Positions 3,504 through 46,976 of a DNA stretch of 48,378 nucleotides are shown here, piece by piece. Position 1 is the stretch's first letter; the number at the start of each line of letters is the position of its first letter. Position numbers and translations under genes: made by a program. The notes beneath the pieces were generated by a model. That model did no database searches. It was not told the origin of the DNA and saw only the letters and a program-made list of their open reading frames with translations. The DNA comes from Candidatus Geocrenenecus huangii (GTDB taxonomy: Archaea; Thermoproteota; Nitrososphaeria_A; Caldarchaeales; Wolframiiraptoraceae). The stretch lies in contig JALNLM010000010.1 of NCBI GenBank assembly GCA_023254095.1, positions 1-48,378 on the forward strand, read 5' to 3'.

Positions 3504-3516
3504 ACAGGTTTATGGA

Positions 3517-5520: not shown

Positions 5521-5610
5521 CTTCTAAAGTCTCGAAGATGCTCTTCAGCAATGAAAGAATTAATCAATTAAAGGAGTATGGCCCCTCTTGATTGTTGTTA
5601 ACGGAGTCTT

Positions 5611-7170: not shown

Positions 7171-7173
7171 ATA

Positions 7174-7521: not shown

Positions 7522-7738
7522 ACTCTCTTCTACTTGGAGAAGTCTTAGTAGCAGTCTATAAAATTTTACTTACTCTTACCCTGCGATAAATATATGCTGT
7601 TGAATCATGTAAAATCTAGAAAGAATTTGCTAACCTATTTCTCAAAATTTAGCCAATGACGTGAGGGGGTTCACTCGATCAGGTCGATACAGTTATATAT
7701 CTCTATATGCTACAGTTTGTTTTCAGGGGTTGAATGAT

Positions 7739-7915
7739 ATGAAGAAACTAGAATGCCCTGTATGTGGTGGACATCTAGAAGTACCTGATGATGCTGTTTC
7801 GGGAGAGCTGTTTGAACATGATGAATGCGGTGCTCAGCTAGAACTTGAAGTAGATGAAAACGGAGACTACAAGCTTAAGGAAGCTGAAGAGATCTCAGAA
7901 GATTGGGGAGAATAA
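7739..7915 (+). CDS. lysW: Amino-group carrier protein LysW
   Basis: 58 aa, CPVC...HDEC Zn ribbon, acidic, C-terminal EDWGE; start moved to ATG 7739. Confidence 0.96.
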   Translation: MKKLECPVCGGHLEVPDDAVSGELFEHDECGAQLELEVDENGDYKLKEAEEISEDWGE

Positions 7916-8091
7916 ATAAACACTCTGGGTAGATATTCATTATCTATTTTCGTGGTTAGGTTTATACGAAAAAAGTAAAAAATATTCATTAAACGAAATA
8001 ATTCGAACGATATGTATACTAGATTTTGCAGATTTCGTATGTAATTCTGAATAGATTTATTAGATTCACAGTATATATGCTTTTAGCATAA

Positions 8092-8940: not shown

Positions 8941-9003
8941 TACAAGGTTATTCATGTTAACGTAAGCCATAAAATCGTCAAGTTACTTATGATTTGAGTA
9001 GAA

Positions 9004-20398: not shown

Positions 20399-22453
20399 AT
20401 GGTGTATCGTGTAGGCATAGATATTGGTGGTGCTTTTACAGATCTGGTTGCATATGACGATGAAACAGGCGACTTCGTATGGGTTAAAGATGAGACAACA
20501 CCTCACGACCCATCAATAGGAGTATTAAACACAGTATCGAAGAGCAAAGTGGACTTCTCGAAAGTCCTCTCGATAATTCATGGTCAAACACTAGTCATCA
20601 ACACGATCATTGAGAGGAAGGGTGCAAAGGTAGGATTAATCACAACGAAAGGATATCGAGACGTACTTGAGCTTCAGAGGTCAAATAGGAGGGACATGTA
20701 TAACTTTAGATATAAGAAGCCTCAATCCCTCATTCCGAGACATCTTAGACTAGAAGTTGATGAACGAATTATGTCGGATGGGACAATCTTGAGGCCGCTG
20801 AATGAAAAAGATGTTGAAAAAGCTACCCAGAAGCTTCTGGAAGAAGGGGTTGAAAGCATATGTATCAGCTTCATAAACTCCTATGCCAACCCATCACATG
20901 AGATAAGAGCTGGAGAGATAGCACGTAAAATTACTAAACTACCTATAACGTTAGGACATGAGATAACACGTGAATGGAGGGAGTATGAGAGGACAGCTAC
21001 CGCTGTATTGAATGCTTACGTTAAGCCTAAGCTTGAAAAATATCTAGATAAGCTAGAAAAAGAATTTATTAAACAAGGGTTCTCTAGAAAACCTTTTGTC
21101 ATGCTTTCAAGTGGAGGTATGGCCTCATTCGATTTCGCTAAAGATTATCCTATATATACTATAGAATCTGGCCCAGTAGCAGGAGTTATCGGCGGAGTCT
21201 ATATTGCTAAACTAGTCGGCGAGAAAAATGTAATCATACTAGATGGAGGCAGTACAACAACTAAAGCAAGCCTAGTCGAGGACCTTACACCTAGAGTCCA
21301 CACAGAATACTATGTGGAAAGAACAAGGTTCACTGCTGGATACCCGGTACGAGTACCAGTGGTTGATACCTTCGAGATAGGAAACGGTGGAACAAGCATA
21401 GCGTGGATTGACGAGATCGGGAACCTGAGAGTAGGGCCTAAAGCAGCTGGAGCCTACCCTGGTCCAGCATGTTATGGTAAAGGTGGCAGAGAGCCAACAG
21501 TCACGGACGCATACGCAGTTAATGGATTGATTAATCCAGAGTATCTCCTCGGAGGGGCCATGAAGATCTACAGGGATCTAGCGGTTAAAACTATAAAAGA
21601 GAAGATTGCAGACCACTACAATATATCAATCGAGGAAGCTGCGGAGGGGGTAATCAAGCTCGCCAACGAGAATGCTGCCTACGCTATTAGAGTAGTATCT
21701 GTGCAGAGAGGATACGATCCTAGAGATTTCACATTAATAGCTCACGGAGGCTCTGGGCCTATGTTCGCTCCATTCATATCCGAAGAACTAGAAATAAAGA
21801 AGATAATCGTACCGGTAATTCCGCCTGGAGTATTCAGTGCATGGGGAATGTTAACGACGGATATTAGACACGACCTAGTAGTCACAGAAGTAATTAGACT
21901 GGATAAAGAAAACGCTTCAAAGAGAGTAAACGAAATATATAGAAGCCTCGAAGAAAAGATGCTAGGGATCTTTAAGGAAGAACTAGGCGTAACGGAGGTC
22001 ATACTTCAAAGATACGCCGACATGAGATACTATGGACAAGAGCATACTGTCAAAGTACCTATACCTTCAGGTCGCATAAATGATGAAGAAGTTAAGAAAA
22101 TAATAGAGAGATTCCACGAATATCATGAGAGAGAATACGCTTTTAGACTAGATAGTCCCGTGGAAATAGTTAATTTCCACCTAGTAGGCGAGTATAGAGT
22201 TAAGAAATTCGAATTAAAAGAATTAAATAATGCAGTGGGCTCCCTAGATGATGCTGTTATGCAGGAAAGAAGAATCTATGTGAATGGAGAAGAACTAAAG
22301 GTTCCCGTATATAACAAGCAAAGGCTGTCTCCAAGATTCAGGATCGAGGGGCCGGCGATAATCGAGGACCCGACCTCAACAATCTTAGTCTTGGCTTCTC
22401 AGAAAGCAATAGTAGATAAGTATGGGAACGTGAATGTATTAAGAGGTGGGTAA
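20399..22453 (+). CDS. hyuA: ATP-dependent hydantoinase/5-oxoprolinase subunit A
   Basis: GIDIGGAFTD, REYERT, ESGPVAG, DGGSTT, GAYPGPACYG, RGYDPRDF, MRYYGQ. Confidence 0.88.
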   Translation: MVYRVGIDIGGAFTDLVAYDDETGDFVWVKDETTPHDPSIGVLNTVSKSKVDFSKVLSIIHGQTLVINTIIERKGAKVGLITTKGYRDVLELQRSNRRDMYNFRYKKPQSLIPRHLRLEVDERIMSDGTILRPLNEKDVEKATQKLLEEGVESICISFINSYANPSHEIRAGEIARKITKLPITLGHEITREWREYERTATAVLNAYVKPKLEKYLDKLEKEFIKQGFSRKPFVMLSSGGMASFDFAKDYPIYTIESGPVAGVIGGVYIAKLVGEKNVIILDGGSTTTKASLVEDLTPRVHTEYYVERTRFTAGYPVRVPVVDTFEIGNGGTSIAWIDEIGNLRVGPKAAGAYPGPACYGKGGREPTVTDAYAVNGLINPEYLLGGAMKIYRDLAVKTIKEKIADHYNISIEEAAEGVIKLANENAAYAIRVVSVQRGYDPRDFTLIAHGGSGPMFAPFISEELEIKKIIVPVIPPGVFSAWGMLTTDIRHDLVVTEVIRLDKENASKRVNEIYRSLEEKMLGIFKEELGVTEVILQRYADMRYYGQEHTVKVPIPSGRINDEEVKKIIERFHEYHEREYAFRLDSPVEIVNFHLVGEYRVKKFELKELNNAVGSLDDAVMQERRIYVNGEELKVPVYNKQRLSPRFRIEGPAIIEDPTSTILVLASQKAIVDKYGNVNVLRGG

Positions 22454-24197
22454 AATGAGCAAGAGAGACATCTTCACTCTAGAGATAATCAAGAGCGGTT
22501 TGATAACTGCCAATGAAGAAATGTTTTACGCTTTCGGGAGAACAGCTAAGAGTCCAGTAATCTATGAAGTATTAGACTACGCCGTAGGGATAACCGATTC
22601 AAAGGGAGAACTGATCGCCCAAGCCCCAGGCGTTCCAGGATTCTCAGGAGTCTTAGACTTCGTAGCCAAAGAAGTACTCGAAAAATGGAGTGGAGAAATG
22701 CGTCCAGGGGACGTTTACATCCTCAACGTACCATATAAGTCTGGGACCCACCTAAACGACGTTACATTAGCAATGCCCGTCTTCTACAGAGACGAATTAT
22801 TATCGATGATCTTGAACAAAGGACACTGGAGTGAAGTAGGAGGAATGCATTTCGGAAGCTGGACATCCGACTCGACTGAAATATATCAAGAAGGTGTACA
22901 ATTCCCTTGTATAAGACTGTATCGTGAGGGAAAACCGAACAAAGATGTAATAGACATTATCTTGGAGAATTCACGTCTACCTCTGCATACGCTTGGAGAT
23001 ATGGAAGCTCAGGCGGCGTCAATGAAGGTAGCTGCTAGAAGAATTGAAAAACTGATTGAGAAATACGGTATAGAGAACGTTAAGAACGCTATGGAGAAGA
23101 TCATAGATGATGGATATAAGCTCGCATTACTTAATTTGAAGAAGCTGCCTAAGGGAGTATTCGAGGCAGAGGATTACCTAGATGACGACGGGTTAACAGA
23201 TGAACCAGTATACGTAAGAGTAAAGGTAACCATAACGGATGAAGAATTCTTAGCGGACTTCACTGGAAGTGGAAGTGTGAAAGGATCTATAGCGTCGCCG
23301 TATCCCGCCACCGTCTCGGGAGTTAGAGAAACATACATGGCTGTAACTGACCCGCATGTAGACTTAAACGGCGGCTACTTTAAACCATTGAAAGTTATCG
23401 CTCCCGAAGGTTCAGCTTTCAATCCTGTCAAGCCAGCTCCTACATCAACGTTCTGGGAAGCAATGTCTTATTCGACAGACCTAGTATGGAAGGCTCTAGC
23501 ACCACATGTACCTGACAAGCTAACTGCCGGACACTTCTTATCAATTCTAGCAACAATTCTAGGAGGCATAGATGAAAGAACGGGTGAACCCTTCGCAATA
23601 GTAGAGCCTCAAGCTGGAGGATGGGGTGCAGGCTACGACATGGATGGAGAAAGCGGGCTAGTAGCATGTGGAGATGGAGAAACCTACATAGCATCAAACG
23701 AAGTCTACGAAAAACACATGCCGATACTTGTGGAGAGATACTGCTTGAACACTGAGAGTGGAACGGGCCATGGTAAGTTCAGAGGAGGATTCGGAGTAAT
23801 AAAAGACTACAGAGTTCTATGTAGTGAAGCTTCTTTCACAGTATCTATCGGTAGAAATAAGTTCCCGCCATGGGGTGTAGCTGGAGGAATGAACGGAACA
23901 CCAAACTACTGCGTAATTTTCAAGCAAGGCGAGGAACCCAAGATCGTTAGAAAAGTAGCAGCAGTAAAACTAAAGAGAGGAGATATGGTAAGCCTAAGGT
24001 CTGGAGGCGGAGGAGGCTGGGGAGATCCCCTTGAAAGAGATCCAGAACTAGTTAGAATGGATGTCAAGAATGAGTACATAACGATCGAGACAGCTAGAGA
24101 AATATATGGGGTAGTCCTAGACCCGAAAACACTAGAAATAAAATGGGATGAGACGAAGAAGCTCAGAGGAGAATTGAAGAAAAAGAAATCCGGATAG
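22446..24197 (+). CDS. hyuB: ATP-dependent hydantoinase/5-oxoprolinase subunit B
   Basis: GTHLND, KGHW, EIYQEG, GKFRGG, GGGGGWGDP; overlaps the hyuA stop. Confidence 0.88.
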   Translation: MGKMSKRDIFTLEIIKSGLITANEEMFYAFGRTAKSPVIYEVLDYAVGITDSKGELIAQAPGVPGFSGVLDFVAKEVLEKWSGEMRPGDVYILNVPYKSGTHLNDVTLAMPVFYRDELLSMILNKGHWSEVGGMHFGSWTSDSTEIYQEGVQFPCIRLYREGKPNKDVIDIILENSRLPLHTLGDMEAQAASMKVAARRIEKLIEKYGIENVKNAMEKIIDDGYKLALLNLKKLPKGVFEAEDYLDDDGLTDEPVYVRVKVTITDEEFLADFTGSGSVKGSIASPYPATVSGVRETYMAVTDPHVDLNGGYFKPLKVIAPEGSAFNPVKPAPTSTFWEAMSYSTDLVWKALAPHVPDKLTAGHFLSILATILGGIDERTGEPFAIVEPQAGGWGAGYDMDGESGLVACGDGETYIASNEVYEKHMPILVERYCLNTESGTGHGKFRGGFGVIKDYRVLCSEASFTVSIGRNKFPPWGVAGGMNGTPNYCVIFKQGEEPKIVRKVAAVKLKRGDMVSLRSGGGGGWGDPLERDPELVRMDVKNEYITIETAREIYGVVLDPKTLEIKWDETKKLRGELKKKKSG

Positions 24198-32547: not shown

Positions 32548-34122
32548 TTATTTTGCATAAGCTCCAGGTTGTTTCCTTGGATCTGAAACTGCTAAGAATA
32601 GGTTATCTTTCTTAAATACTGATTGAACCGCTCCAAAGTATATGTCTGTTCCAGGATACATGGAGACTTCTCTAACTTCACCTATGTTTAGTCCTGCTTT
32701 GATAAGTCCGCTGCTCGAGATCTTATCCTTAATCAAGTCTTCTAAAACTACTCTGTCCCCTCTGACATGTATTCTTCCTTCGAGTACTGAGGAGACTGGA
32801 TCAAGTCTTCTTATAAAGTAGTTAGAGAGAGTCTGTACTAGCGAAGATATTATCCTCATACCTCCAGATGCGCCTATCACTATCGTTGGAGAGCCGTCTC
32901 TATCAAGTATGATTAATGGAGACATACTGCTCGCAGGCCTCTTACCTGGAGATATGGAGTTCGGATGATCTCTCTGAAGGGTGAAGTCATGCATCTCATC
33001 GTTTAGCAAGATCCCTTTAACAGTTATCCCTGAGCCCATAAAACATTCAATGGTTTCTGTGAGAGATACAAACATCTTACCTTTTCCATCTGCAATACTT
33101 ATATGAGATGTTCCACCTCTATCTCCAACTAGGTGGTAGGAGACTCTACCTTTTTCAATGGAATCTAGAGACTGTCTGACATGGTTTTCTGAAAGGAGCC
33201 TATTAAAATCCATCTCATTAAATAATGGGTCTGATATTATGGAACATCTTTCATCAATTATGTGAAAGAGAGTATGTGCAAGTCTTAGGTAATATTCTTC
33301 ATCTTTCAGTTCCGTCTCAGATAATATCTTTAAGGCTTCGATTAATAATATGCCTGAGCTTGGAGGAGGCATAGTTGCGAACTTTAAAATCTTACCTCCA
33401 ATTTCTAATTCATAGATGATTGGCTCCCTCCATATTGCCTTATAGCATGATAGATCTCTTAAGGAGAGGAACCCATTGTTGATAGAGAATATCCTATCGA
33501 TCTCTTCAGCTATCTCTCCTTGGTAAAAGTATTCTATATTGTCTCTAAGCATTCTTAGTGTTTGAGCAAATCCTCTATAGGATATTGTAGAATCCTCAGG
33601 ATATATTTTTCCATCTTTGAAGAATGTAGTGTAGCTTTCTGGGCACATCTTGAGTTTGTATTTTGCATTATCTAGATCTTTGTTCATGCATTTACTCCAT
33701 AATCTTGACACTCGACATGATTCCGCATACTTTATCACTAGGTCTATTATCTTACTCCACTTAAATTCTCCGAATTCTTGATGTAGCATCCAAAGTCCTC
33801 TTAATGTACCTGGAACGGCCACAGCTTTATAGCCGATCGAAGCATCTTCCTCACTTCTATAATCTTCGATTCTCGCTTTCTGTGGAGCTACTTCACGGTA
33901 ATCCAAAGCTCTAAACCCGTGGTCTTCTGAATATAGTAATGCGAATCCTCCTCCGCCTAGACCACTCCAACCTGGCTCGAGCACGTTCAAGAGTAATGAA
34001 GCAGCTATAGCTGCATCAACTGCATTGCCCCCTTCCCGCATTACTTCTAGAGATATGTGTGAAGCTACCGGCGAATGAGAAGATATTGCTTTTTCACCTA
34101 TAGAATATACGTTCTCAGACAT
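32548..34122 (-). CDS. ggt: Gamma-glutamyltransferase (Ntn hydrolase)
   Basis: GGNAVDAAIA, GLGGGGF, DYRE, VPG, TSH nucleophile, LNDEMHDF, PGKRPASSMSP, GASGG. Confidence 0.92.
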   Translation of the reverse strand: MSENVYSIGEKAISSHSPVASHISLEVMREGGNAVDAAIAASLLLNVLEPGWSGLGGGGFALLYSEDHGFRALDYREVAPQKARIEDYRSEEDASIGYKAVAVPGTLRGLWMLHQEFGEFKWSKIIDLVIKYAESCRVSRLWSKCMNKDLDNAKYKLKMCPESYTTFFKDGKIYPEDSTISYRGFAQTLRMLRDNIEYFYQGEIAEEIDRIFSINNGFLSLRDLSCYKAIWREPIIYELEIGGKILKFATMPPPSSGILLIEALKILSETELKDEEYYLRLAHTLFHIIDERCSIISDPLFNEMDFNRLLSENHVRQSLDSIEKGRVSYHLVGDRGGTSHISIADGKGKMFVSLTETIECFMGSGITVKGILLNDEMHDFTLQRDHPNSISPGKRPASSMSPLIILDRDGSPTIVIGASGGMRIISSLVQTLSNYFIRRLDPVSSVLEGRIHVRGDRVVLEDLIKDKISSSGLIKAGLNIGEVREVSMYPGTDIYFGAVQSVFKKDNLFLAVSDPRKQPGAYAK

Positions 34123-34126
34123 CCTA

Positions 34127-35101
34127 TCAACCTATTCTATACCAGTTCCTTAGTCCATCTCTATCTAGCTCGAGTATCACCCCTTTCAATATCCCAGAAG
34201 AATATTCTGAACCTGGATTAAATACTATGGTCTTCCCTACTTTATCGTATCCAGCCGATTCATGTATATGTCCATGGAGACCAATTATCGGTTTGTATTT
34301 TTCAATGAACTTTCTTACAGACTTGCTTCCAACATTTTCCTTCTCCATCTCTCCAAGACTATACACTGGTTTTAGATTCTTATCTAGCTTAGGAGCAACA
34401 TCTATAACCGTATTATAGGGTGGTGGATGGAAACAGCATATTATTTTGTCCCAATCTCTATCGACTAGGTTTACTGTCTTCTCCAACATCTTCCACAACT
34501 TGTTTTCTTCAGCTTCCCTAGGAGTATTCCATGGGGTCGGGTTAACGTGATCGAAGGAGACCATGCCATAGCCTAATGGTAGCTCTACTAATTTACCTAG
34601 AGGATACATATCTCTGATGCTTTTTTTCAATACTGGGTCTATATCTAAGATATCGTCGTTTCCAGGCATAACTATAACTTGCTTATCTTTCTGGACGTGT
34701 TCTTCTAGCATTACGACCCATCTCTTGATATTCTCAGTTATCAATGTTGAGAATAATCTGTTGACTTTTTCAGGATCTTTTTTCAGTTCTTCTACTTCTT
34801 CTCTACTACAAATATATGGATATACTCCACAATTCTTTAATTCATTCTTTGCTTGTTCCAAATTCTCTGATCCTTTAACTATGTTTGTTTTTCCTTTAAA
34901 GGTGTATTGATAGTTTTCTCCTCCGAGGTCTATTATTGGAATTATTGCTTTTCCAGTTAGGTCTCCTGAAAGTATCATAACATCTATTTCATGATGTTGT
35001 GGAATTGAGAGGAATCTTCTAAATACTAGCTCGCTATTATGGATATCAGCGACAAAGAATATTTTGAAGGAGCTCATTCCTCCTCTCGACCTTTCACTCA
35101 A
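34127..35101 (-). CDS. Calcineurin-like metallophosphoesterase (Icc-related)
   Basis: ADIH, SGDLTG, MPGNDD, FHPPP, LHGHIHE, FNPGS. Confidence 0.9.
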   Translation of the reverse strand: MSERSRGGMSSFKIFFVADIHNSELVFRRFLSIPQHHEIDVMILSGDLTGKAIIPIIDLGGENYQYTFKGKTNIVKGSENLEQAKNELKNCGVYPYICSREEVEELKKDPEKVNRLFSTLITENIKRWVVMLEEHVQKDKQVIVMPGNDDILDIDPVLKKSIRDMYPLGKLVELPLGYGMVSFDHVNPTPWNTPREAEENKLWKMLEKTVNLVDRDWDKIICCFHPPPYNTVIDVAPKLDKNLKPVYSLGEMEKENVGSKSVRKFIEKYKPIIGLHGHIHESAGYDKVGKTIVFNPGSEYSSGILKGVILELDRDGLRNWYRIG

Positions 35102-35147
35102 GACCTATATTAATAGTTGAAATATAAAAAAGATTATGGAGTTTTCA

Positions 35148-36806
35148 TTAAGCTGGAGGTATCTCGGCGAATATCTTTTCAGTCTTTATGCCCTTCTTCT
35201 TATTTGCCCAGTTATAGTATGAGTAGAGTATTATGGCTAGCAGTGTCCAGCCTATCATCCAGGAAGGCGATACAAACGTTACGTCTGCAGCCATTTGCTG
35301 TAAACCAAGTACTAAGAGTATAAATGTTGATACAATTGCCGCTCCTCCTACAATCGATATTACAGGGACTCCTCCAATAGTCTTCGTATAGCCCTCCTTA
35401 TAGACCTCCGGCCTCCTAAAGGGCAGGATCGTTGTAGCTATCGCTGATAGGAACCATCTAACGGCTACTGCCGTAACAGCTGTTATCGCATAGAATAGTG
35501 GTCCATATTCTGGAGATGCTAAAATTAATAGCATTAATATGGCTCCGACTATTACTAATGTTATAGACCAGTGTGGTGTCCTAAACCTATCATTAACTTC
35601 CGCCAGCTTCTCCGGGAAGAACCTATCAAATGATAATGCGAATGCGATTCTTGATGGTACCATCATGTATACGGGGATTCCATTCATTACCCATAATGGT
35701 ACAGCCAGAGTAATGATGATGGCGAGTATAGGTGCCCAGCCACCGAAGAGAGAAGCTATAAAGACCGCCCAGGTAGGTGTCTGTACAGGGTTGATTGCAA
35801 GCTGACTATAAGCGCTTTCGGTATTCATTACATACTCGTAGGCTGAGAAGAATTCTCTAAACCCTAGAAGAGTTAAAGATGATATCGAGAGATAGTATGC
35901 GAAGACGAGTATTATTGCTCCAACCGTTCCTAGGAAGAAGTTTCTCTTTGGCCTATCTATCTCTCCAGCCATGTAATTAGCGTATTCAAGCCCCCAGAAT
36001 GCATATGCTGAGATAACGATGCTGAGTGAGAGGGTTATCTCAGGAGACCATGGACCAGGCCAACCCCACTTAGAGGGGTCGCCAGTAGCCGATGCCACAT
36101 AATCTCTCCAACCTGTCGCTGACGCTACATTCATTATCTCATCATATGCCCCTGACCCGTAAGTCATATCCCATAGATTTCTTACCTGACTCGGCGTTAG
36201 AGATGCTGCGTATGCTGCTCCAGCTATAGTAGCTATTCCTGCTACTAGCGCTAGGAGGAAGAGTATGTTTATGACATATTTGTAGACTTTTACCCCTAGT
36301 AGGCTGATAACTCCAAATACCAATACGAAGAATATTCCGAGACCTATTGAAGCGACTGGGTCAGTGGAGAGCGATTCTCCCAAAGAAACCAAACCATTAT
36401 TATGTGTTGCTAATCCTACTTGTATTATCGCGCTTCCCCAGAACCAGGCCATGAAGTAAGACAATGCTCCTACGATCCAGATATGTACTCCGAGTACCAG
36501 TAGTGCCTCTATGTATCCTAGCAATGGGTGGAGTACCCTGGAGATTCCTACATAGTCTGAGGCAGTTCTAGGCATAGCCATGGTTAAGAAGATTACGGCA
36601 AATGCTGCTAGAGCCATTATTACTCCTCCAAGGACTAATGCTAATGGTATGTTTGCTCCAGGCGCAGAGTATCCTTGGCCAGCAGTAAATAGGTAGAACC
36701 CGTCCGCTATAACGTAGTTCGCGGCCATAGCCATGACCGAGAATGCGCCGATCTCTCTTACAAGCCCCGAAGTTCTTCTAACAAATACTATCTCCTCAGA
36801 ACTCAT
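35148..36806 (-). CDS. APC-superfamily amino acid/polyamine permease
   Basis: FVRRTSGLVRE N-terminus, about 12 TM helices, MPR, AGEI, SRIAFALSFDRFFP, TPH, EIPP C-terminus. Confidence 0.9.
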   Translation of the reverse strand: MSSEEIVFVRRTSGLVREIGAFSVMAMAANYVIADGFYLFTAGQGYSAPGANIPLALVLGGVIMALAAFAVIFLTMAMPRTASDYVGISRVLHPLLGYIEALLVLGVHIWIVGALSYFMAWFWGSAIIQVGLATHNNGLVSLGESLSTDPVASIGLGIFFVLVFGVISLLGVKVYKYVINILFLLALVAGIATIAGAAYAASLTPSQVRNLWDMTYGSGAYDEIMNVASATGWRDYVASATGDPSKWGWPGPWSPEITLSLSIVISAYAFWGLEYANYMAGEIDRPKRNFFLGTVGAIILVFAYYLSISSLTLLGFREFFSAYEYVMNTESAYSQLAINPVQTPTWAVFIASLFGGWAPILAIIITLAVPLWVMNGIPVYMMVPSRIAFALSFDRFFPEKLAEVNDRFRTPHWSITLVIVGAILMLLILASPEYGPLFYAITAVTAVAVRWFLSAIATTILPFRRPEVYKEGYTKTIGGVPVISIVGGAAIVSTFILLVLGLQQMAADVTFVSPSWMIGWTLLAIILYSYYNWANKKKGIKTEKIFAEIPPA

Positions 36807-36922
36807 GAGAAAAAATCTCGCATGCTTGCATATAAGATTTTAAGATTACAAAATACACGTTCATCATGATATTACATCCTGAAGGTCTTCCAAGTGTATC
36901 CTTCTTAAAAGTTAATTAGTCC

Positions 36923-38311
36923 GTGTATAAAATATCGGATATTATGAGTAAATTAGATAACATTATGGAGATTGTTGAGAGGAATAAAATCAAGTTCGTC
37001 AGGTTTATCTATGTCGGACTAGACGGGGTTCTAAGAGCTAAGTCGTCTTATCTAGATGAGCTTGAAGACCACTTAATCCACGGTATAGGTTTAACCATGG
37101 CGATGCAGTCTTTCACAGCTCTCGATACGCTACTATCAGAACCGAGATTCGGACCAGAATCGGAAGATATCTTCTTAGTCCCAGACCTAGAAACATTCTC
37201 ACCCATAACCTACGTAGAAGGACAGGGTAGGGTACTATGCGATATGAAGTTGAGAAATGGAGAAGAATGGGGCTTCTGTACTCGCAGTCTCCTCAAGAAG
37301 CTCTCGAAGAGATATAAAGAAGAACTAGGGATTGTTTTTCAGAGTGCTGCAGAAACCGAGTTCTACATACTGAAGCAGACGGCGCCCGATAAAGTTGAGC
37401 CAATAGATTGGGCGAGATGTTTCTCAACGGTCGGATATGACGCTCTTGGAGACATAATCTTAGAGATAATCGACGCGCTTAAAGCCTCGGGAATATCCGT
37501 AGTGAGGATCATTAAAGAATATGGTCCAGGACAAGTAGAGATAAATATGAAGCATAGGAACATATTAAGAGCCGCTGATGATATGGTTGTCTTGAGGGAT
37601 GTTGCAAAAGGTGTTGCGGCAAAACATGGTCTAGTGGCCACTTTCATGGCGAAGCCTTTCGACTGGCATGCGGGAAGCGGTATGCATTTCCACATAAGCG
37701 GTCTAGATACGGAGACAGGTAAAAACGTATTCTATGATAAGAACGATAAGAAAGGATTGAACCTATCTCGAACAGCATACTACTTCATTGGGGGAATCCT
37801 ACATCATATGAAGTCTCTATCGGCTATTGTAGCTCCGACGATAAATTCGTACAAGAGATTGATTCCTGGGTCATGGGCTCCATCGAACATATGCTATGGA
37901 TACAATAATAGGTCTGCAGCAATAAGAATACCGACTACGAGAGTTGGAAAAGAAGAGAAAAATATTAGGATAGAGTTTAGAACACCGGATGCAACCGCAA
38001 ACCCATACCTAGCGCTGGCGGCCACTATAGCGGCGGGGGTTCATGGGATTAGAGAAGAGATCGATCCCGCAGAACCCGTTAACGTAGATGCGTACAAGCT
38101 CTCAAAAGAAGAGAGAGCTAAGAGGAATATAGAACTTCTCCCTACAAGTTTGAGAGAAGCTCTAGAGTATCTTGATAGGGATGACTATCTTAAATCTGAA
38201 CTTGGCTCCGAGCTAATAGAAGAATACATAAAGATCAAGAAGGTTGAATGTGAATCCTATGAACATTATGTAAGCCCATGGGAGATTAAGAACTATGTCC
38301 CAGTATTCTAA
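36923..38311 (+). CDS. Glutamine synthetase-like gamma-glutamyl-amine ligase (PuuA/GlnA3-like)
   Basis: ETEFY, EYGPGQVE, TFMAKP, GSGMHFH, NSYKRL, NRS..IR, RIEFR..D...NPY; lacks the ammonium-site DGSS and has GSWAP instead of GYEAP. Confidence 0.85.
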   Translation: MYKISDIMSKLDNIMEIVERNKIKFVRFIYVGLDGVLRAKSSYLDELEDHLIHGIGLTMAMQSFTALDTLLSEPRFGPESEDIFLVPDLETFSPITYVEGQGRVLCDMKLRNGEEWGFCTRSLLKKLSKRYKEELGIVFQSAAETEFYILKQTAPDKVEPIDWARCFSTVGYDALGDIILEIIDALKASGISVVRIIKEYGPGQVEINMKHRNILRAADDMVVLRDVAKGVAAKHGLVATFMAKPFDWHAGSGMHFHISGLDTETGKNVFYDKNDKKGLNLSRTAYYFIGGILHHMKSLSAIVAPTINSYKRLIPGSWAPSNICYGYNNRSAAIRIPTTRVGKEEKNIRIEFRTPDATANPYLALAATIAAGVHGIREEIDPAEPVNVDAYKLSKEERAKRNIELLPTSLREALEYLDRDDYLKSELGSELIEEYIKIKKVECESYEHYVSPWEIKNYVPVF

Positions 38312-39272
38312 GATTAGAGAGATCTTAAACACCTTAAAGGATGTCGACGTTGACAAAGTCTTGCAGGCCGTGCAGGATAGGGTAAAAGTATATCCTACAC
38401 CACATTATCTACCGATTCACATAGAATATCTTAATGAGCTAGATCAGAAAGAAAACTTCTGTGGCGCGTTTAGTGCATCATACATCTTGAGAGGTTTAGG
38501 CTACAGGACCCACAGAAATGAAATAGTAGACCAAGACTATATAGCGTATCTTTCAAGAGTAAACGTAGACCCAAGAGACTTAGAAAAAATTAGGAAATTA
38601 AAGAATGAGATAGCTAGTTTATCAGGAGAAGAAGCTAGAAAGATTGTTGAGGAGAACAGAAGTATATGGTATAGGTTTGATGATCTTCCAACAACTGTGA
38701 AGTCTCAGGAGCTTGGCGCTAGCCCTGAAGGAATCACTTACGCAATCCATGAAGTAAGCATGTCTAAGCTTAAAGTAATACCTGTGAAGACCGTTAGTAA
38801 GACTGAGGATGAGCTCTTATCAAGCGAGAAAATGGCCGTCCTTCTAGAATTATTCAAGAAAGCTGAAGTATACAATGCACAGTTTATACTAAACTTGAAC
38901 ACGAGATACTTGTTAGACTCTGAGAAGATCTTTAAGTTATCAGAGAAGCTTCTGTTGGGAGAAGTGTTCCAAGAAGTTTATAGAGAAAGTGTTGGGCACT
39001 ATGTTGGATGTGCTGGCTTGATAGAAGTTAACGATAAGCCTTTAATCATTATAAGAGAAACGTATCGGAAGTATGGAGTACATCTTCAACCTGCAGAATA
39101 TGTTAGAAGAGCTCTAATAAGAGAGGATGGAAGGGAAGGTGGAGTCCTAATCATTGTTCCAGCAGATTTAGAAAAGGATCTTAAGAAGATGCTGAGTGAT
39201 AGAGGATTAAGGGTGGAGACTTGGGATAATGGAAGCCCATATACTCCGTTTACCAGCCGGCGAACCTTCTAA
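38295..39272 (+). CDS. Uncharacterised papain-fold-like Cys hydrolase
   Basis: Q-x4-CG (QKENFCGAF) followed by a helix, GHYV, IRETY; overlaps the GS-like gene by 17 bp. Confidence 0.6.
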   Translation: MSQYSKIREILNTLKDVDVDKVLQAVQDRVKVYPTPHYLPIHIEYLNELDQKENFCGAFSASYILRGLGYRTHRNEIVDQDYIAYLSRVNVDPRDLEKIRKLKNEIASLSGEEARKIVEENRSIWYRFDDLPTTVKSQELGASPEGITYAIHEVSMSKLKVIPVKTVSKTEDELLSSEKMAVLLELFKKAEVYNAQFILNLNTRYLLDSEKIFKLSEKLLLGEVFQEVYRESVGHYVGCAGLIEVNDKPLIIIRETYRKYGVHLQPAEYVRRALIREDGREGGVLIIVPADLEKDLKKMLSDRGLRVETWDNGSPYTPFTSRRTF

Positions 39273-40584
39273 CCTTCTCTTTATCTATTCTATCTTTTTC
39301 TAAGTCGTCCACAGCTTTTTCAAATATTTCTAATGCTTTCTCTACATCTTCACTACTCACCGTTAAGGGTGGGGTAATCTCTATGACGTTAGAATATGTT
39401 CCTACGTAAGTAACGAGTAGACCGAGCTCGAAGGCTCTATAGACGAGGCAGGCAGCCTCGAAGGTAGCGGGTGTCTTCGCTTTAGGGTCTTTAACCAGCT
39501 CAGCTCCTAAGATCATCCCCTTACCTCTAACATCACCTATTAGTTGATGTTTTTCTCTTATCTCGTTAAGCCTCTTCAAGATGTAGTCTCCCACTCTAGC
39601 AGCTCTTTCATGAATTTTATCTCTCAAGATTATGTTTATGGTTGCTAATGAAGCGACACAGCTAACTGGATGAGCGCTACTTGTGAAGAGATGGGCCGCT
39701 ATAGCCGCGTCCATGATCTCTCCTCTTCCGACGACCGCGCTTAGAGGGAGTCCGGAGGCCATGGGTTTAGCCATAGATATAACGTCTGGAGCCACATTTG
39801 AATGTTCTATAGCGAAGAACTTGCCTGTTCTTCCAAATCCGACTTTAACTTCATCGACGACTAAGCTTATCCCTCGATGCTTACAGATCTTATGTAGTTT
39901 GGGGATGAATTCTGGAGGTGGAACGATTACTCCGCCATCGCTTTGTATAGGCTCAATAATTATTGCAGATAAGTCTTCAGCTGGAGCATTCTCTATAACA
40001 TTATTCTCAAGAAAGTCTATACATAGTAACCCACATTCTGGATATTGTTGCTTGAATGGACATCTATAACAATAAGGATATGGAGCCTTCAAGGTGTTTG
40101 GGAATCCGATAAATCTTGTTAATGCTTTATGCCCAGATAAGCTCAGAGCCCCCATAGTCTGTCCATGATAAGATCCCTGAAATCCAAGCAGCCTCCTTCT
40201 ACCAGAATATATAGGCATTATCTTATAGATTAACTCATTAGCATCTGAGCCTGTTAAACCAAACCATACCTTCTTCTTGAAATCTCCAGGTGTTACCTCT
40301 ACTAATCTTTCAGCTAATTCTATTCCCACAGCGTTTGGGAAAGTAGTATGAGATGAGAATACTAACTTTTCTAGTTGTTTCTTCACTGCCTCGATTACTT
40401 CTGGGTTATTATGTCCTAGATTCGTTACAGCCCATTGCGATGAGAAATCTATATACTCTCTACCTTCTACATCCCAGATCTTTGAATTAAAAGCTCTATC
40501 AACTACTATTGGATAAAATCTTATACCTATAATTCTGCCAACTACACGTTCTTCTCTCTCCAAGTATTCAAGTACGCTAGACAT
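39250..40584 (-). CDS. Class III PLP aminotransferase (GABA/putrescine transaminase-like)
   Basis: DVEGREYIDF, LGH, GSDANE, SYHGQT, EPIQSDGG, DEVKVGFGRTG, MAKP. Confidence 0.9.
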   Translation of the reverse strand: MSSVLEYLEREERVVGRIIGIRFYPIVVDRAFNSKIWDVEGREYIDFSSQWAVTNLGHNNPEVIEAVKKQLEKLVFSSHTTFPNAVGIELAERLVEVTPGDFKKKVWFGLTGSDANELIYKIMPIYSGRRRLLGFQGSYHGQTMGALSLSGHKALTRFIGFPNTLKAPYPYCYRCPFKQQYPECGLLCIDFLENNVIENAPAEDLSAIIIEPIQSDGGVIVPPPEFIPKLHKICKHRGISLVVDEVKVGFGRTGKFFAIEHSNVAPDVISMAKPMASGLPLSAVVGRGEIMDAAIAAHLFTSSAHPVSCVASLATINIILRDKIHERAARVGDYILKRLNEIREKHQLIGDVRGKGMILGAELVKDPKAKTPATFEAACLVYRAFELGLLVTYVGTYSNVIEITPPLTVSSEDVEKALEIFEKAVDDLEKDRIDKEKVRRFAGW

Positions 40585-40638: not shown

Positions 40639-41463
40639 ATGCCCGGAGTAAGGTTGATAGACGAATTTTCATCTAAAGTATTGAAGACAGCTCTCGAAAT
40701 CGTTGATGCAGCTCATAATAGAGGTGTAGTAGCAAGGATCTTGGGAGCAGTAGCGACGTACCTCCATTGCTGTAACGATACCCAGGCTCTAACATTCATC
40801 AAAAACGCGGGGAGACTTACTACCGGAAAGGTATTTACAGACGTGGACCTAATAGCTTACAGTAAGCAGCGGAAACAATTAGTAAACCTTATGAGAGAAT
40901 TGAATTTTGATGAGAATAAAATTATAAACGCATTGTTCGGATATAAGAGATTGTTGTTCTTTAAAGATCAGGTAAAAGTCGATATATTCTTTGATAAACT
41001 AGAATTCAGCCATGATGTATTTTTTGGGAGTGAGCCAGGTAAAGGAAGGCTTGAAATAGATTATCCCACAATAAGCTTAACAGACTTGATGTTAGAGAAG
41101 CTCCAGATACATCAAATAAATAAGAAAGATATAATCGATATAATAGCGGTCTTGATAGTGCATGATGTAGGCGATACAACTGAAAAAGAGGTCATAGATG
41201 GGAAGTATATAGGGAGCATATTGTCCGATGATTGGGGCTTCTGGTATGACGCACTTGAAAATTTGAAGAAAGTTGAGTACTTCGTAAATAAATTTAGAGA
41301 AGAGAACCTGTTGAGTTCTGACCAATCTACTAAGGTTCTCCAAAATATTGAAAAGATTAAGATAGCTATTGAAAATACTGAGAAGACTAAGAACTGGATT
41401 AAACGCTCTAAGATAGGTACCTCAAAACCATGGTATAGGGAAGTTGAAGATTTGAATGTTTAA
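40639..41463 (+). CDS. Stand-alone Pol-beta-superfamily nucleotidyltransferase-like protein
   Basis: ILGAVA (hG[GS]-like), TDVDL, KVDIF third Asp, C-terminal LEKL...KKDIID helix motif. Confidence 0.7.
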   Translation: MPGVRLIDEFSSKVLKTALEIVDAAHNRGVVARILGAVATYLHCCNDTQALTFIKNAGRLTTGKVFTDVDLIAYSKQRKQLVNLMRELNFDENKIINALFGYKRLLFFKDQVKVDIFFDKLEFSHDVFFGSEPGKGRLEIDYPTISLTDLMLEKLQIHQINKKDIIDIIAVLIVHDVGDTTEKEVIDGKYIGSILSDDWGFWYDALENLKKVEYFVNKFREENLLSSDQSTKVLQNIEKIKIAIENTEKTKNWIKRSKIGTSKPWYREVEDLNV

Positions 41464-41548: not shown

Positions 41549-42733
41549 ATGGTGAAGTTAATCCAGTTTTATAGCCCTCGAGGCTTAAAGCTCTCTAGGG
41601 CGGAAAACCAGTATGTATGGGATACCAATGGAAGAAAATATCTAGATTGTCATACTCAGTACGGGTCAATCTTTCTAGGACATAGAAACCCGAAGATAAC
41701 AAACGCTATCAAAGAACAGATCGATAAGATTTACGGAGCATATCCGGCATTTGATACAGAAGCTAAAGAGAAAGCATTAGAAAGTCTAAGCAAGATTCTC
41801 CCAAGAAAACTTGAATACGTATACATGTTGAACGGGGGAGGAGAAGCAGTAGAATTAGCATTAAAGATTACTAGAAAAATTACAGGAAGAAAGAAATTCA
41901 TCTCCTTCATCAATGCATTTCATGGAAGAACAATGGGGGCCTTATCTGTTACATGGAATCCAAAATACAGAGAGGGATACGATCCATTCCCATGGGATGT
42001 AAAATTCCTACCATACAATAAGGTTGAAGAACTGGAGAAAGAAGTAGACGATGGAATAGCCGGGGTCATCGTTGAAGTAATACAGGGAGAAGGGGGGCTG
42101 AATGAGGGATCAGTAGAATTCCTGAAAGCTATTAGAGAAGCATGTGATAAGGCGGGGGCACAGATGATTATAGACGAGGTCCAGACAGGCTTCGGTAGAA
42201 CAGGATATCTCTGGGCACATCAGATCGCAAACGTAGAACCCGACATACTAGTAGCAGGGAAAGCTATAGGAGGAGGATTTCCAGTAAGCTTAACTGCTGT
42301 TAAAACAGAACTTGGAGAAAAACTAAAAGAAGGAGACCATGGATCAACTTTTGGAGGAAATCCGATTGCATGTGCAGCCTTAACAGCCTCCATTCAAGTC
42401 TTACTAGAAGAAAAAGTAGTAGAAAGGGTAGCTCAAACAGGCAGGATATTTAGAGAAAGTCTTGAAAAGGTTAAGGAAGATTTTGGAGAAGTTGTAAGAG
42501 AAGTAAAGGGCCGGGGATTGTTCCTCGGCATAGAGACAAGATTTGAACCTACATCTATACTAAAACTATTACAAGATAATGGTGTGATAGCTTTAAGAGC
42601 TGGAAGACTGGTAGTAAGATTCCTACCTCCATACATGATATCTACAAAAGACATAGAGTATGCGGTGGGAACGCTTAGAAATGTTCTAAGCCAGGTAAAA
42701 GAAGAAAAAATAGTAACGAAAACACAAACCTAG
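41549..42733 (+). CDS. lysJ: [LysW]-aminoadipate/glutamate semialdehyde transaminase (ArgD family)
   Basis: AFHGRTMGALSVTWNPKYR, IQGEGG, DEVQTG, AGKAIGGG, HGSTFGGNP, RFLPP. Confidence 0.9.
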   Translation: MVKLIQFYSPRGLKLSRAENQYVWDTNGRKYLDCHTQYGSIFLGHRNPKITNAIKEQIDKIYGAYPAFDTEAKEKALESLSKILPRKLEYVYMLNGGGEAVELALKITRKITGRKKFISFINAFHGRTMGALSVTWNPKYREGYDPFPWDVKFLPYNKVEELEKEVDDGIAGVIVEVIQGEGGLNEGSVEFLKAIREACDKAGAQMIIDEVQTGFGRTGYLWAHQIANVEPDILVAGKAIGGGFPVSLTAVKTELGEKLKEGDHGSTFGGNPIACAALTASIQVLLEEKVVERVAQTGRIFRESLEKVKEDFGEVVREVKGRGLFLGIETRFEPTSILKLLQDNGVIALRAGRLVVRFLPPYMISTKDIEYAVGTLRNVLSQVKEEKIVTKTQT

Positions 42734-46508: not shown

Positions 46509-46976
46509 TTACCTCGATCTATTCTTATCTATATATTTTTCCCCATTTCCTTCAGGCTTCATTGCATGATAATATTGTTTCGGATTCTCTGCAGCTTCTC
46601 TTGCCAGCCTATCAGCTTCCCTATTTTCTACTCTACTTATATGCATTATCTTGAACTTCTTAATATTCTTCATCAATTCCTGCACCTCTCTATACAACCT
46701 TCTTATCTTCTCATCTCTTACATTGTATTCTTTATTGATCTGCTTAACTAGGAGCTCGCTGTCAGAGTAGAGCTCAACTTCATCTGCACCCAATCTAGAA
46801 GCTATTTCGAGAGATTTGATCAAAGCTAAGTATTCTGCCTCATTATTAGTCCTTAAACCTATGTAATCTGAGGATCTAAAGATCTCCCGTCCCTCTTCAT
46901 TATAGATTATTAACCCTATCCCAGATGGACCAGGATTACCTTGAGAAGACCCGTCGAAGAATATCTTCAGCTTCAA
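46509..46976 (-). CDS. rnhA: Ribonuclease HI
   Basis: FDGSSQGNPG, TNNEAEY, SDSELL, NREAD.LA. Confidence 0.93.
   Translation of the reverse strand: MKLKIFFDGSSQGNPGPSGIGLIIYNEEGREIFRSSDYIGLRTNNEAEYLALIKSLEIASRLGADEVELYSDSELLVKQINKEYNVRDEKIRRLYREVQELMKNIKKFKIMHISRVENREADRLAREAAENPKQYYHAMKPEGNGEKYIDKNRSR

Follow-up and report, generated by a model that had tools for sequence, protein, structure and literature searches.

In a 48,378-nucleotide stretch of the genome of Candidatus Geocrenenecus huangii (the window), we identified a gene for a protein of Pfam family DUF6885 that overlaps the gene for a glutamine synthetase (GS)-like glutamate-amine ligase. We propose, with moderate confidence, that DUF6885 is a thiol amidase or transferase that acts on gamma-glutamyl-amine conjugates in the same pathway as the overlapping ligase. 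The reading of a shared pathway is based on observations described below: the fold of the protein, its conserved residues, the linkage of the two genes, and their co-inheritance. The features of the locus are as follows.

32548..34122, minus strand: gamma-glutamyltransferase (GGT) homologue (G_glu_transpept, 4.1e-109)
34127..35101, minus strand: metallophosphoesterase (Metallophos, 2.3e-06)
35148..36806, minus strand: APC-family amino-acid/amine permease (AA_permease_2, 4.2e-25)
36807..36922, no strand: divergent, AT-rich intergenic region of 116 bp that separates the permease and ligase operons
36923..38311, plus strand: GS-like glutamate-amine ligase, 462 amino acids (Gln-synt_C, 2.8e-115, and Gln-synt_N_2)
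38295..38311, plus strand: overlap of 17 nucleotides between the ligase stop and the DUF6885 start, pointing to translational coupling
38295..39272, plus strand: DUF6885 gene, 325 amino acids, predicted papain-fold thiol enzyme like phytochelatin synthase (Pfam and AlphaFold2 model)
38445..38462, plus strand: codons for Gln51 to Cys56 (QKENFC), with Gln proposed for the oxyanion hole and Cys as the nucleophile
38997..38999, plus strand: codon for His235, proposed general base
39057..39059, plus strand: codon for Glu255 (Asp in bacteria), proposed third member of the triad
39222..39239, plus strand: C-terminal WDNGSP motif, with W310 and N312 invariant in 94/94 members
39250..40584, minus strand: class-III (omega-) aminotransferase (Aminotran_3, 2.5e-103)

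Identification of the DUF6885 gene

The reading frame starts with an ATG at position 38295. As the first-pass annotation had anticipated, its product matches an existing DUF; PF21819 (DUF6885) scores 144.8 bits (cut-off 27; E 3.3e-42), and positions 2–251 of the 251-position profile are covered by the 325-amino-acid protein. The N-terminus (MSQYS...) is kept in relatives that share 67–97% identity. Together with the PF21819 score and the conserved overlap with the ligase gene, this conservation indicates that the reading frame did not arise by chance. A chance motif is likewise ruled out by the Pfam score and by the size of the family, which comprises 266 clusters among 1.84 billion representative proteins. 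A literature search found no paper that names the DUF6885 family.

Profile searches failed to connect DUF6885 with other papain-like or amidotransferase families. PF05023 was not matched at E values up to 10, and the profiles of the C26 and class-I glutamine amidotransferase (GATase) families (PF07722 and PF00117) and of BtrH_N (PF14399) gave no match. The match to PF13529 (C39_2) fell below threshold (E 0.23; 12.5 bits, cut-off 24), and a HMMER search of PDB sequences returned nothing. We therefore rejected membership in PF05023, C39, C26, or BtrH_N on the basis of sequence.

Predicted fold and structural relatives

The AlphaFold2 model of the DUF6885 protein (pLDDT 94.4) reveals a papain fold, and pLDDT is still high to about residue 320, that is, through the region of the WDNGSP motif. 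The closest solved relative is Alr0975 (NsPCS) from Nostoc sp. PCC 7120 (Foldseek E 4.4e-06), a prokaryotic peptidase that resembles, and represents a primitive form of, phytochelatin synthase; it belongs to MEROPS family C83 and Pfam PF05023. Alr0975 aligned with a Z of 16.5 and an rmsd of 3.0 over 184 residues among the Foldseek candidates and was the top match (Z 16.0) among 48,161 representative chains in a search performed without Foldseek, which ranked the same families. The Foldseek candidates included 253 chains at Z 8 or more, the best 50 of which, as listed, are papain-fold enzymes; arylamine N-acetyltransferase and transglutaminase folds are absent among the best 50 listed in either structure search. 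C39 and C39-like domains (ComA, PCAT1) form a second tier (Z 12.6–13.2; rmsd 2.1–2.4), and the nearest ESM-Atlas clusters outside DUF6885 are those of PF05023 (score 0.95; 174/256 features shared). The suggestion made from the sequence, that the protein has a papain fold resembling phytochelatin synthase (PCS) and C39, is thus upheld by Alr0975 at Z 16.0–16.5, C39 at about 13, and the ESM-Atlas neighbors.

Alr0975 and DUF6885 can be aligned over 181–186 residues and have in common the order Gln, Cys (opening a helix), His, and Asp, although their identity is only 12–16%. DUF6885 differs in having additional helical structure at its N-terminus, an inserted helical segment at approximately residues 86–135, and the C-terminal WDNGSP motif. 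Alr0975 forms a gamma-Glu-Cys acyl-enzyme and cleaves the bond after gamma-Glu-Cys rather than the gamma-glutamyl bond, as described in PMC3855540. Action on gamma-glutamyl compounds through a thioester would be a further likeness, which for DUF6885 is a proposal. The genomic contexts differ as well, since DUF6885 genes lie beside GS-like ligases and not among genes of glutathione metabolism.

DUF6885 is about 190 residues longer than C39 domains and is not fused to an ABC transporter; genes for double-glycine leader peptides are not found nearby, and no ABC exporter adjoins the DUF6885 gene in the window. PDB entry 22oc ("P210 CD lyase", released 2026-03) aligned over 177/193 residues with a Z of 15.3, and a literature search found no paper behind it. 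BtrH of butirosin biosynthesis also has a papain fold of the C39/C70 branch, and the group that it transfers is gamma-glutamylated. Transfer of an acyl group instead of hydrolysis is described for BtrH in PMC10318531; its donor is a carrier-protein thioester, whereas the DUF6885 locus contains no gene for a carrier protein.

Candidate catalytic residues

The motifs that the first-pass annotation had singled out, Q51-K-E-N-F-C56-G, G234-H235-Y-V, and E255-T256, are present in the translation, and the conservation that it expected of Cys and His holds, with C56 and H235 found in 94/94 genome-derived members. Indeed, Q51, C56, H235, and D/E255 are all kept in these 94 proteins, and they occur in 106, 106, 112, and 112 of 113 database members, respectively. 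Position 255 is Glu in 14 of the genome-derived members, all of them archaeal, and Asp in the other 80.

The helix formed by residues 56–67 begins with Cys56 in the AlphaFold2 model, in agreement with the earlier placement of the Cys at a helix start. His235 lies at the opening of strand 234–245, and Glu255 just after strand 248–254. This predicted arrangement, with Cys at the N-terminus of a helix and His and the acid on later strands, is that of the papain superfamily (clan CA). Comparison with 12 cyanobacterial PCS-like proteins in hhalign gave a weak match (E 0.013, probability 3%), in which His235 aligned with the His of GGH and Asp/Glu255 with the Asp of LDVS; at low stringency, FC56G aligned with FCG of the cyanobacterial PCS-like proteins. 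Because of the topology of the model and the alignment to phytochelatin synthases, Cys56 and His235 are predicted to be juxtaposed. In AtPCS1 the triad is C56, H162, and D180, and the oxyanion Gln (Q50) stands six residues before the Cys (PMC3855540). The spacing from Gln to Cys is five residues in DUF6885, compared with six in PCS and papain.

Linkage to a GS-like ligase in Archaea

The best NCBIfam model for the ligase is gamma-glutamylputrescine synthetase, although its score of 432.8 bits lies under the cut-off of 650. By sequence, the closest solved relatives of the ligase are true archaeal glutamine synthetases (1.2e-78). The ligase has no DGSS loop, whereas the genome's other GS does; the second, GS-type gene is located on another contig.

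The coding regions overlap by 17 nucleotides, as reported in the first-pass annotation, from the ATG at 38295 to the last base of the ligase stop codon (TAA, 38309–38311). This overlap and a GGGAG sequence 11–15 nucleotides upstream of the ATG are kept in 9/9 archaeal loci of the same family. The ligase gene is directly upstream of DUF6885 in 8/8 other loci of that family and in 3/3 loci of a second archaeal family. The first 11 archaeal loci to be read thus all place a GS-like ligase beside DUF6885, and the two genes also adjoin in two further genomes (G488 and G485). The exception is G486, in which DUF6885 is unlinked from the ligase. There, permease, phosphoesterase, GGT, and ligase form one co-directional row, with the phosphoesterase between permease and GGT; the aminotransferase still adjoins DUF6885 while the ligase is located elsewhere.

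Co-inheritance extends this linkage. Ligase, DUF6885, and GGT share one distribution within the archaeal family, namely 12 of its 31 genomes. DUF6885 is found in 12/12 genomes with a ligase orthologue and in 0/18 tested genomes without one; the corresponding counts for GGT orthologues are 12/12 and 0/19. Aminotransferase orthologues (at least 68% identity) occur in 11/12 cassette genomes and in 0/19 other family genomes. In the window, the aminotransferase gene is convergent with DUF6885 and overlaps it by 23 nucleotides. In the second archaeal lineage, the permease adjoins the ligase (permease-ligase-DUF6885), and GGT was found in none of the genomes (0/3). Two nearby genes were considered as cassette members and set aside: the gene for a 274-amino-acid protein at 40639–41463, on account of its wide occurrence among archaea (843 clusters), and a second aminotransferase at 41549–42733, which is LysJ-like and part of a set of Lys/Arg genes.

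Bacterial loci and family tree

We examined 80 bacterial loci drawn from 466 matching genomes; reading frames in high-GC loci were selected with a GC3 filter. A ligase gene on the same strand adjoins DUF6885 in 57/80 loci, lying downstream in 34, upstream in 8, and on both sides in 15, whereas 22 loci have none adjacent. The remaining locus (L079) has a ligase gene just downstream and was left unscored because the window's protein had no match there. The coupling to the ligase proposed for the window is thus conserved in Archaea and in several bacterial phyla. A permease lies next to the ligase in 34/80 loci, an M20 peptidase in 36/80, and a C26 or class-I GATase gene in 18/80; in L066, which reads ligase-C26-DUF6885-ligase, the C26 gene lies directly beside DUF6885. 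Among the 44 loci with full flanks, 35 contain another amidohydrolase and seven contain a ligase without any other amidohydrolase. Pau-like clusters of actinobacteria have the order DUF6885-ligase-unknown-permease-SDR-FAD oxidase, together with an aldehyde dehydrogenase gene close by; C26 is absent. In G403, one of the genomes with such a cluster, a different GS-like gene lies beside C26 and aldehyde dehydrogenase genes, without DUF6885.

Ligase-free members adjoin EamA transporters in 12/80 loci and also occur near nitrilase-type CN-hydrolases, Orn/Lys/Arg decarboxylases, and M20 peptidases; since they sit among other genes, the family can work without the ligase. One protein (P0149) is a fusion of EamA and DUF6885. 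No fusion of ligase and DUF6885 was found among the best 150 of 266 representatives or, as weak evidence, in a search for longer proteins; P0158, in which Gln-synt_N_2 is joined to the C-terminal half of DUF6885, was rejected as a probable artefact of gene calling. In the tree of the family, ligase-linked members make up the archaeal clade and most bacterial clades, and the unlinked EamA-type clade (12 members) is nested inside them.

Proposed mechanism and alternatives

We infer the substrate of DUF6885, the bond that is cleaved, and the balance of hydrolysis and transfer as follows. An amine would be taken up by the APC permease and gamma-glutamylated by the ligase at the expense of ATP, after which the far end of the conjugate would be modified, here by the class-III aminotransferase. 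DUF6885, probably a thiol enzyme of the papain superfamily located in the cytoplasm, would then attack an amide bond of the gamma-glutamyl conjugate to form a thioester acyl-enzyme. Cys56 would serve as the nucleophile and His235 as the base, with Glu255 (Asp in bacteria) orienting His235 and Gln51 contributing to the oxyanion hole. Water could resolve the thioester, making DUF6885 a hydrolase that performs a PuuD-like step on a different fold; less likely, an amine would do so, as in the transpeptidase reaction of phytochelatin synthase. A dedicated transpeptidase of this latter kind, which uses the ligase's gamma-glutamyl-amine as acyl donor to build new gamma-glutamyl conjugates or oligomers that GGT, C26, or M20 enzymes recycle, strikes us as improbable.

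The closest structural relative suggests another division of labor, in which DUF6885 is a PCS-type dipeptidyl peptidase or transpeptidase that recognizes the gamma-glutamyl head while its cleavage or transfer takes place one amide bond further on (gamma-Glu-X|Y), leaving the gamma-glutamyl bond to the co-encoded GGT in this archaeon and to C26, GATase, or M20 in bacteria. We consider this rather unlikely. It would accord with the formation of a gamma-Glu-Cys acyl-enzyme by Alr0975 (PMC3855540), with the inheritance of GGT together with the cassette (12/12 versus 0/19), with the presence of another amidohydrolase in 35/44 full-flank loci, and with the gene row of L066. However, the second archaeal lineage has neither GGT (0/3) nor a full-length C26 (2/2 genomes), seven bacterial loci with full flanks lack a second amidohydrolase, and the cassette has no gene to build a second amide bond.

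DUF6885 might instead act ahead of the ligase, releasing an amine, as a thiol amidase, from a conjugate brought into the cell (for example, an N-acyl polyamine or small amide); the ligase would tag the amine and a separate enzyme would untag it. The surroundings of ligase-free members (EamA, CN-hydrolases, decarboxylases, M20), the P0149 fusion, and the frequency of other candidate deglutamylases are consistent with this order of events, to which we nevertheless give little credence: an upstream step would need neither strict co-inheritance with the ligase nor a 17-nucleotide overlap, the tree places the unlinked EamA clade as derived, and no candidate conjugate is known. Papain-fold relatives, to judge from the best 50 listed, are mostly peptidases (C39, staphopain, UfSP), and overlapping genes frequently code for subunits, which raises the idea that DUF6885 acts on a protein, be it as a peptidase for processing or regulation or as a subunit bound to the GS-like ligase. 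This appears very improbable given that the ligase switches between upstream and downstream positions in bacteria and is unlinked in G486, that the neighbors throughout are small-molecule amine enzymes and permeases, and that, as weak evidence, a fused ligase-DUF6885 protein was not found.

DUF6885 and the PuuD step

If DUF6885 acts as a hydrolase on gamma-glutamyl-amine conjugates, it would stand where other gamma-glutamylation pathways use a different fold. To our knowledge, in every described case the gamma-glutamyl tag is taken off by a hydrolase of the class-I amidotransferase type; IpuF and AtdA2 are further examples. The canonical pathway consists of the PuuP/A/B/C/D/E steps, and its tag-removing hydrolases PuuD and PauD are of this class, as described in PMC9397018. 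Like DUF6885 as proposed here, PuuD and PauD (Peptidase_C26) are Cys-His-acid hydrolases encoded beside a PuuA-type ligase, in clusters that also encode a permease, an aldehyde dehydrogenase, and either an amine oxidase or an aminotransferase (PMC9397018), and in some clusters DUF6885 takes their place. Their class-I glutamine amidotransferase fold is unrelated to the papain-like fold of DUF6885. Because DUF6885 has this fold and does not match PF07722 or PF00117, it can at most be a functional analogue of PuuD.

The first-pass annotation raised the possibility of a non-homologous replacement for PuuD and suggested an anti-correlation of DUF6885 and C26 genes in GS-like clusters. Support for both is mixed. 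A full-length C26 is absent from the window's genome, which is 96% complete, and from 2/2 genomes examined from the second archaeal lineage; DUF6885 and C26 exclude each other in these genomes, as they do at both GS-like loci of G403. Replacement is thus consistent with two archaeal lineages and with the one actinobacterial cluster type that lacks C26, but the archaeal cassette contains a co-inherited GGT and 35/44 full-flank bacterial loci contain another amidohydrolase. Similarly, the anti-correlation holds in archaea and part of bacteria but not in general; because the two co-occur in 18/80 bacterial loci, DUF6885 is not a simple one-for-one substitute for PuuD. The GGT of the cassette could be the deglutamylase, since it is gained and lost with the cassette and stands in a row with the ligase in G486.

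Discussion

Gamma-glutamylation is the main bacterial route for the use and detoxification of polyamines and monoamines. Our analysis ties a phytochelatin-synthase-like papain fold to GS-like ligases in at least two lineages of Archaea and, with 466 matching genomes, in hundreds of species of soil bacteria. If DUF6885 is a deglutamylase, it would provide a clean case of non-homologous replacement, and both a Pfam DUF and the GS-like paralogues found in Caldarchaeales, Thermoleophilia, Rubrobacteria, and Dormibacterota would gain a function. A transferase, by contrast, would hint at unknown gamma-glutamyl metabolites; were the transpeptidase reading true, these might be, for example, gamma-glutamylated polyamines that thermophilic archaea and soil Actinomycetota use as compatible solutes or to buffer metals or thiols. 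In either case, the phytochelatin-synthase branch of thiol enzymes would be extended to Archaea and to amine metabolism.

Structural analysis of the DUF6885 protein

Features of the window around the DUF6885 gene
32548-34122 (-): GGT
34127-35101 (-): metallophosphoesterase
35148-36806 (-): APC permease
36923-38311 (+): GS-like gene, hereafter the ligase
38295-39272 (+): DUF6885 gene, open reading frame of 325 amino acids
39250-40584 (-): class-III aminotransferase

The first-pass annotation proposed that the DUF6885 gene encodes a papain-like protein resembling phytochelatin synthase (PCS) and C39 domains, which might match an existing DUF. The protein matches Pfam DUF6885 (PF21819) across the entire profile (E 3.3e-42) and none of the NCBIfam models. 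The family is small; a 17-member profile retrieved 266 clusters at E ≤0.001 (68 at ≤1e-30) among 1.84 billion representative proteins. The AlphaFold2 model generated from the alignment of that search (mean pLDDT 94.4, pTM 0.92) supports the proposed fold. Foldseek against the PDB placed nine chains of the Nostoc "primitive phytochelatin synthase" Alr0975 at the top (best E 4.4e-06); staphopains and C39 domains came next. VIA-align superposed Alr0975 on the model over 184 residues with a Z of 16.5 and an rmsd of 3.0 Å, followed by 22oc (15.3), the pseudomurein endoisopeptidase PeiR (13.7), C39 domains (~13), staphopain (~12), and papain-type proteases (~10). A Foldseek-independent structure search over 48,161 representative chains returned the same ranking. 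PCS clusters also led an ESM-Atlas feature search, which is independent of structure and was ranked without DUF6885 clusters (0.95; 174 of 256 features in common). Judged by sequence, the relationship to PCS is remote: the protein had no match in a plain sequence search of the PDB and none to the PCS profile PF05023 at E up to 10. The second-best structural match, PDB 22oc ("P210 CD lyase"), was released in 2026-03; we found no paper describing it, and it may become the closest characterised relative of DUF6885 once published.

The motifs noticed in the first pass, Q51-KENF-C56-G, G234-H235-Y-V, and E255-T256, are all found in the translation. In the model, helix 56–67 begins with Cys56, His235 opens strand 234–245, and Glu255 comes after the next strand, a predicted layout that is that of papain. 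Among 113 database members of 240–345 amino acids, Gln51 is kept in 106, Cys56 in 106, His235 in 112, and Asp/Glu255 in 112, the exceptions being mostly gaps in truncated gene calls. All four residues are present in each of 94 members translated from species-representative genomes, which agrees with the expected conservation of Cys and His; N200, Y257, Q265, P266, R276, W310, and N312 are also invariant in this set. Position 255 is occupied by Glu in all 14 archaeal members and by Asp in all 80 bacterial members. A profile alignment with 12 cyanobacterial PCS-like proteins from genomes pairs VGH235 with GGH and D255-T-Y with LDVS (E 0.013, but an hhalign probability of 3%); a low-stringency alignment pairs FC56G with FCG. 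By these alignments, the DUF6885 motifs would correspond to those of the published PCS triad, Cys56/His162/Asp180 in AtPCS1, whose oxyanion residue Gln50 has its counterpart in Gln64 of NsPCS (PMC3855540). The conserved Gln lies six residues ahead of Cys in PCS and papain, whereas the spacing in DUF6885 is five. We consider it very probable that DUF6885 is an active thiol enzyme.

Linkage of DUF6885 to a putative amine ligase in archaea

The source genome is small and archaeal (1.6 Mb, 96% complete), and the closest relatives of the protein carry the source labels Aigarchaeota, Caldarchaeales, or Nitrososphaerota. The ATG of the DUF6885 gene lies 17 nt ahead of the TAA stop of the ligase gene. 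This overlap, reported in the first pass, is conserved in nine of nine loci of the window's archaeal family, in which the ligase stop is TAA, TAG, or TGA; a GGGAG element lies 11–15 nt 5' of the ATG in all nine. The 3' end of the DUF6885 gene overlaps the convergent aminotransferase gene by 23 nt.

The ligase protein contains Gln-synt_C (2.8e-115) and the N-domain Gln-synt_N_2. Its best NCBIfam model, gamma-glutamylputrescine synthetase, scores 432.8 bits, under the cut-off of 650, and the protein also falls under the GlnA cut-off. The protein of a second, GS-type gene on a different contig has a DGSS loop, which we take to be part of the ammonium site; at the aligned position, AMQSF is found in the window's ligase and in the relatives of that ligase. 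The nearest solved structures by sequence are archaeal glutamine synthetases (1.2e-78) and glutamate-methylamine ligase (1.1e-74). The GS-like protein is therefore a likely, though putative, amine ligase.

Of 401 genomes sampled from the phylum, 14 contain PF21819; in 13 of these the match exceeds the cut-off. The ligase is directly upstream of DUF6885 in eight of eight further genomes from the window's family and in three of three complete loci of a second archaeal family, f12, in which identity to the window's proteins is 51% for the ligase and ~38% for DUF6885. Full-length ligase orthologues (60–84% identity) occur in 12 of 31 genomes of the window's family; DUF6885 is present in all 12 and in none of 18 genomes that lack the orthologue (G490 falls outside this count). 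GGT orthologues match this distribution exactly, occurring in those 12 and being absent from the remaining 19. Aminotransferase orthologues occur in 11 of the 12 (the contig of the twelfth, G485, stops within DUF6885) and, at ≥68% identity, in none of the other 19. In genome G486, permease, phosphoesterase, GGT, and ligase form one row on a single contig, and DUF6885 is convergent with the aminotransferase on a separate contig. What is inherited together is therefore a cassette of six genes, in which [GGT, phosphoesterase, permease] diverge from [ligase, DUF6885], which converge with [aminotransferase].

Permease, metallophosphoesterase, and GGT (32548-36806, -) form an operon divergent from the ligase; the metallophosphoesterase may be a sign of a phosphorylated amine substrate. 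Single in-frame stops in an aminotransferase orthologue (TAA; G285:C7:29431-30759) and a ligase orthologue (TGA; G187:C116:4631-6004) may be assembly errors or mark decaying copies. The f12 module is smaller, consisting of permease-ligase-DUF6885 with an adjoining ornithine-cyclodeaminase/mu-crystallin gene; this gene and a DUF6512 gene lie beside the module in L117:6934-8022 and L118:9610-10593. These neighbours hint at a diamino-acid or cyclic-imine intermediate.

Elsewhere in the window, 40639-41463 (+) encodes a 274-amino-acid protein with no Pfam or NCBIfam match and a G-x-V-x-T-D-V-D stretch that looks nucleotidyltransferase-like by eye; its 843 related clusters are spread over Thermoproteota, Bathyarchaeia, and Methanomethylicia, and the protein is not cassette-specific. 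LysW-type lysine/arginine biosynthesis genes (2388-10062 and 41549-42733) encode two LysX-like ATP-grasp ligases, a semialdehyde dehydrogenase, an amino-acid kinase, an M20 LysK-like peptidase, and a LysJ-like aminotransferase (494.8 bits, under the cut-off of 700). The LysW-type pathway likewise employs gamma-glutamyl amide protection. Hydantoinase A/B (oxoprolinase-type; 20399-24197, +) or aldehyde:ferredoxin oxidoreductase (10062-11945, -), encoded 13–25 kb from the cassette, could serve a gamma-glutamyl pathway through 5-oxoproline opening or aldehyde oxidation. The gene at 46509-46976 (-) encodes a small protein (155 amino acids) of the RNase H / RVT_3 type.

Genomic context in bacteria

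A pattern scan with one genome per species found relatives in 466 bacterial genomes; the counts below rest on the best 80 loci. Thermoleophilia, Rubrobacteria, and other Actinomycetota supply most of these; Dormibacterota, two cyanobacteria, and single records from Acidobacteriota and Chloroflexota are also represented. A tblastn search using the proteins of the window showed that 57 of the best 80 have an adjacent same-strand GS-like gene (34 downstream, 8 upstream, 15 on both sides); in 5 more such a gene lies elsewhere in the locus, 17 lack one, and 1 is unscored. The ligase pairing noted in the first pass thus extends beyond the window, to the 11 archaeal loci above and these 57 bacterial ones. 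Pfam scans (130 ORFs, 15 loci) and tblastn with 14 neighbour proteins revealed four recurrent layouts.

Recurrent layouts of bacterial DUF6885 loci
A: DUF6885-ligase-unknown 151 aa-APC permease-SDR-FAD oxidase; aldehyde dehydrogenase upstream; no C26
B: aminotransferase-GATase-GntR-aminotransferase-ligase-[C26]-DUF6885-ligase-permease
C: [ligase]-DUF6885-ligase-M20 peptidase-[Orn/Lys/Arg decarboxylase]
D: EamA transporter-DUF6885; M20 peptidase nearby; no ligase

In a 94-member tree, the archaeal proteins group as a single clade, and most bacterial clades are occupied by ligase-linked members. The 12 members with layout D make up a nested clade whose sister is layout A; losing the ligase linkage requires at least 6–8 changes. 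The layout D clade is actinobacterial (L031, L033, L043, and nine others), with DUF6885 directly behind the EamA gene. A 606-amino-acid database protein, P0149, is an EamA-DUF6885 fusion. The 151-amino-acid ORF of layout A, which has no Pfam match, is conserved between ligase and permease in 12 loci (L017:9112-9567 and 11 others).

Proposed function of DUF6885

The first-pass annotation raised the possibility that DUF6885 replaces the C26 hydrolase PuuD. The canonical pathway comprises PuuP, PuuA, PuuB, PuuC, PuuD, and PuuE, with PauA-D as the Pseudomonas counterpart (PMC9397018). Four observations favour replacement. No full-length C26 was found in the two f12 genomes examined and no GGT in three, and DUF6885 is the sole amidase candidate beside the ligase in f12 archaea. 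Layout A contains every Pau function except PauD and, by analogy, reads as a Pau/Puu-like set with DUF6885 in PauD's place. In the window's genome, C26 matches are only partial and lie within 577- and 522-amino-acid frames that look like generic amidotransferase domains. In layout-A genome G403, another GS-like gene adjoins C26 and aldehyde dehydrogenase without DUF6885, and G405 has a further C26-ligase pair. Against replacement, GGT lies within the window's own cassette, and C26 or GATase occurs in 18 of the best 80 bacterial loci, including L066 (ligase-C26-DUF6885-ligase). M20 peptidase occurs in 36 of the 80. Full 7-kb flanks are available for 44 loci. Of these, 33 include a ligase and 35 another amidohydrolase of some kind; just 7 combine a ligase with the absence of any other amidohydrolase. 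Thus, the anti-correlation with C26 suggested in the first pass does not emerge as a general pattern. These data would fit several gamma-glutamyl intermediates that are each served by a separate hydrolase, by analogy with the multiple PauA and PauD of Pseudomonas, or else a role for DUF6885 other than simple deglutamylation.

That DUF6885 functions in one pathway with the ligase is a prediction we hold with good confidence. The combined reading, in which a thiol enzyme of the ligase pathway mainly hydrolyses a gamma-glutamyl-linked amide, strikes us as an even bet. Cys56, assisted by His235, Glu255, and Gln51, would attack an amide carbonyl of a gamma-glutamyl-amine conjugate; the leaving group would be the amine, or the portion beyond the scissile bond, and either water or an amine would then resolve the thioester. 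Cleavage of the PCS type, at the bond next after the gamma-glutamyl bond, is unlikely; an amine-releasing amidase acting in the step before the ligase is more doubtful still, and a role directed at proteins is highly improbable.

Our literature search found no publication that mentions the name DUF6885 and none that joins "phytochelatin synthase-like" with "glutamine synthetase"; PF21819 is absent from the main text of a 2023 classification covering papain-like enzymes (PMC10318531). What is new here is the archaeal six-gene cassette with GGT and its strict co-inheritance, together with a minimal permease-ligase-DUF6885 module in a second archaeal lineage.
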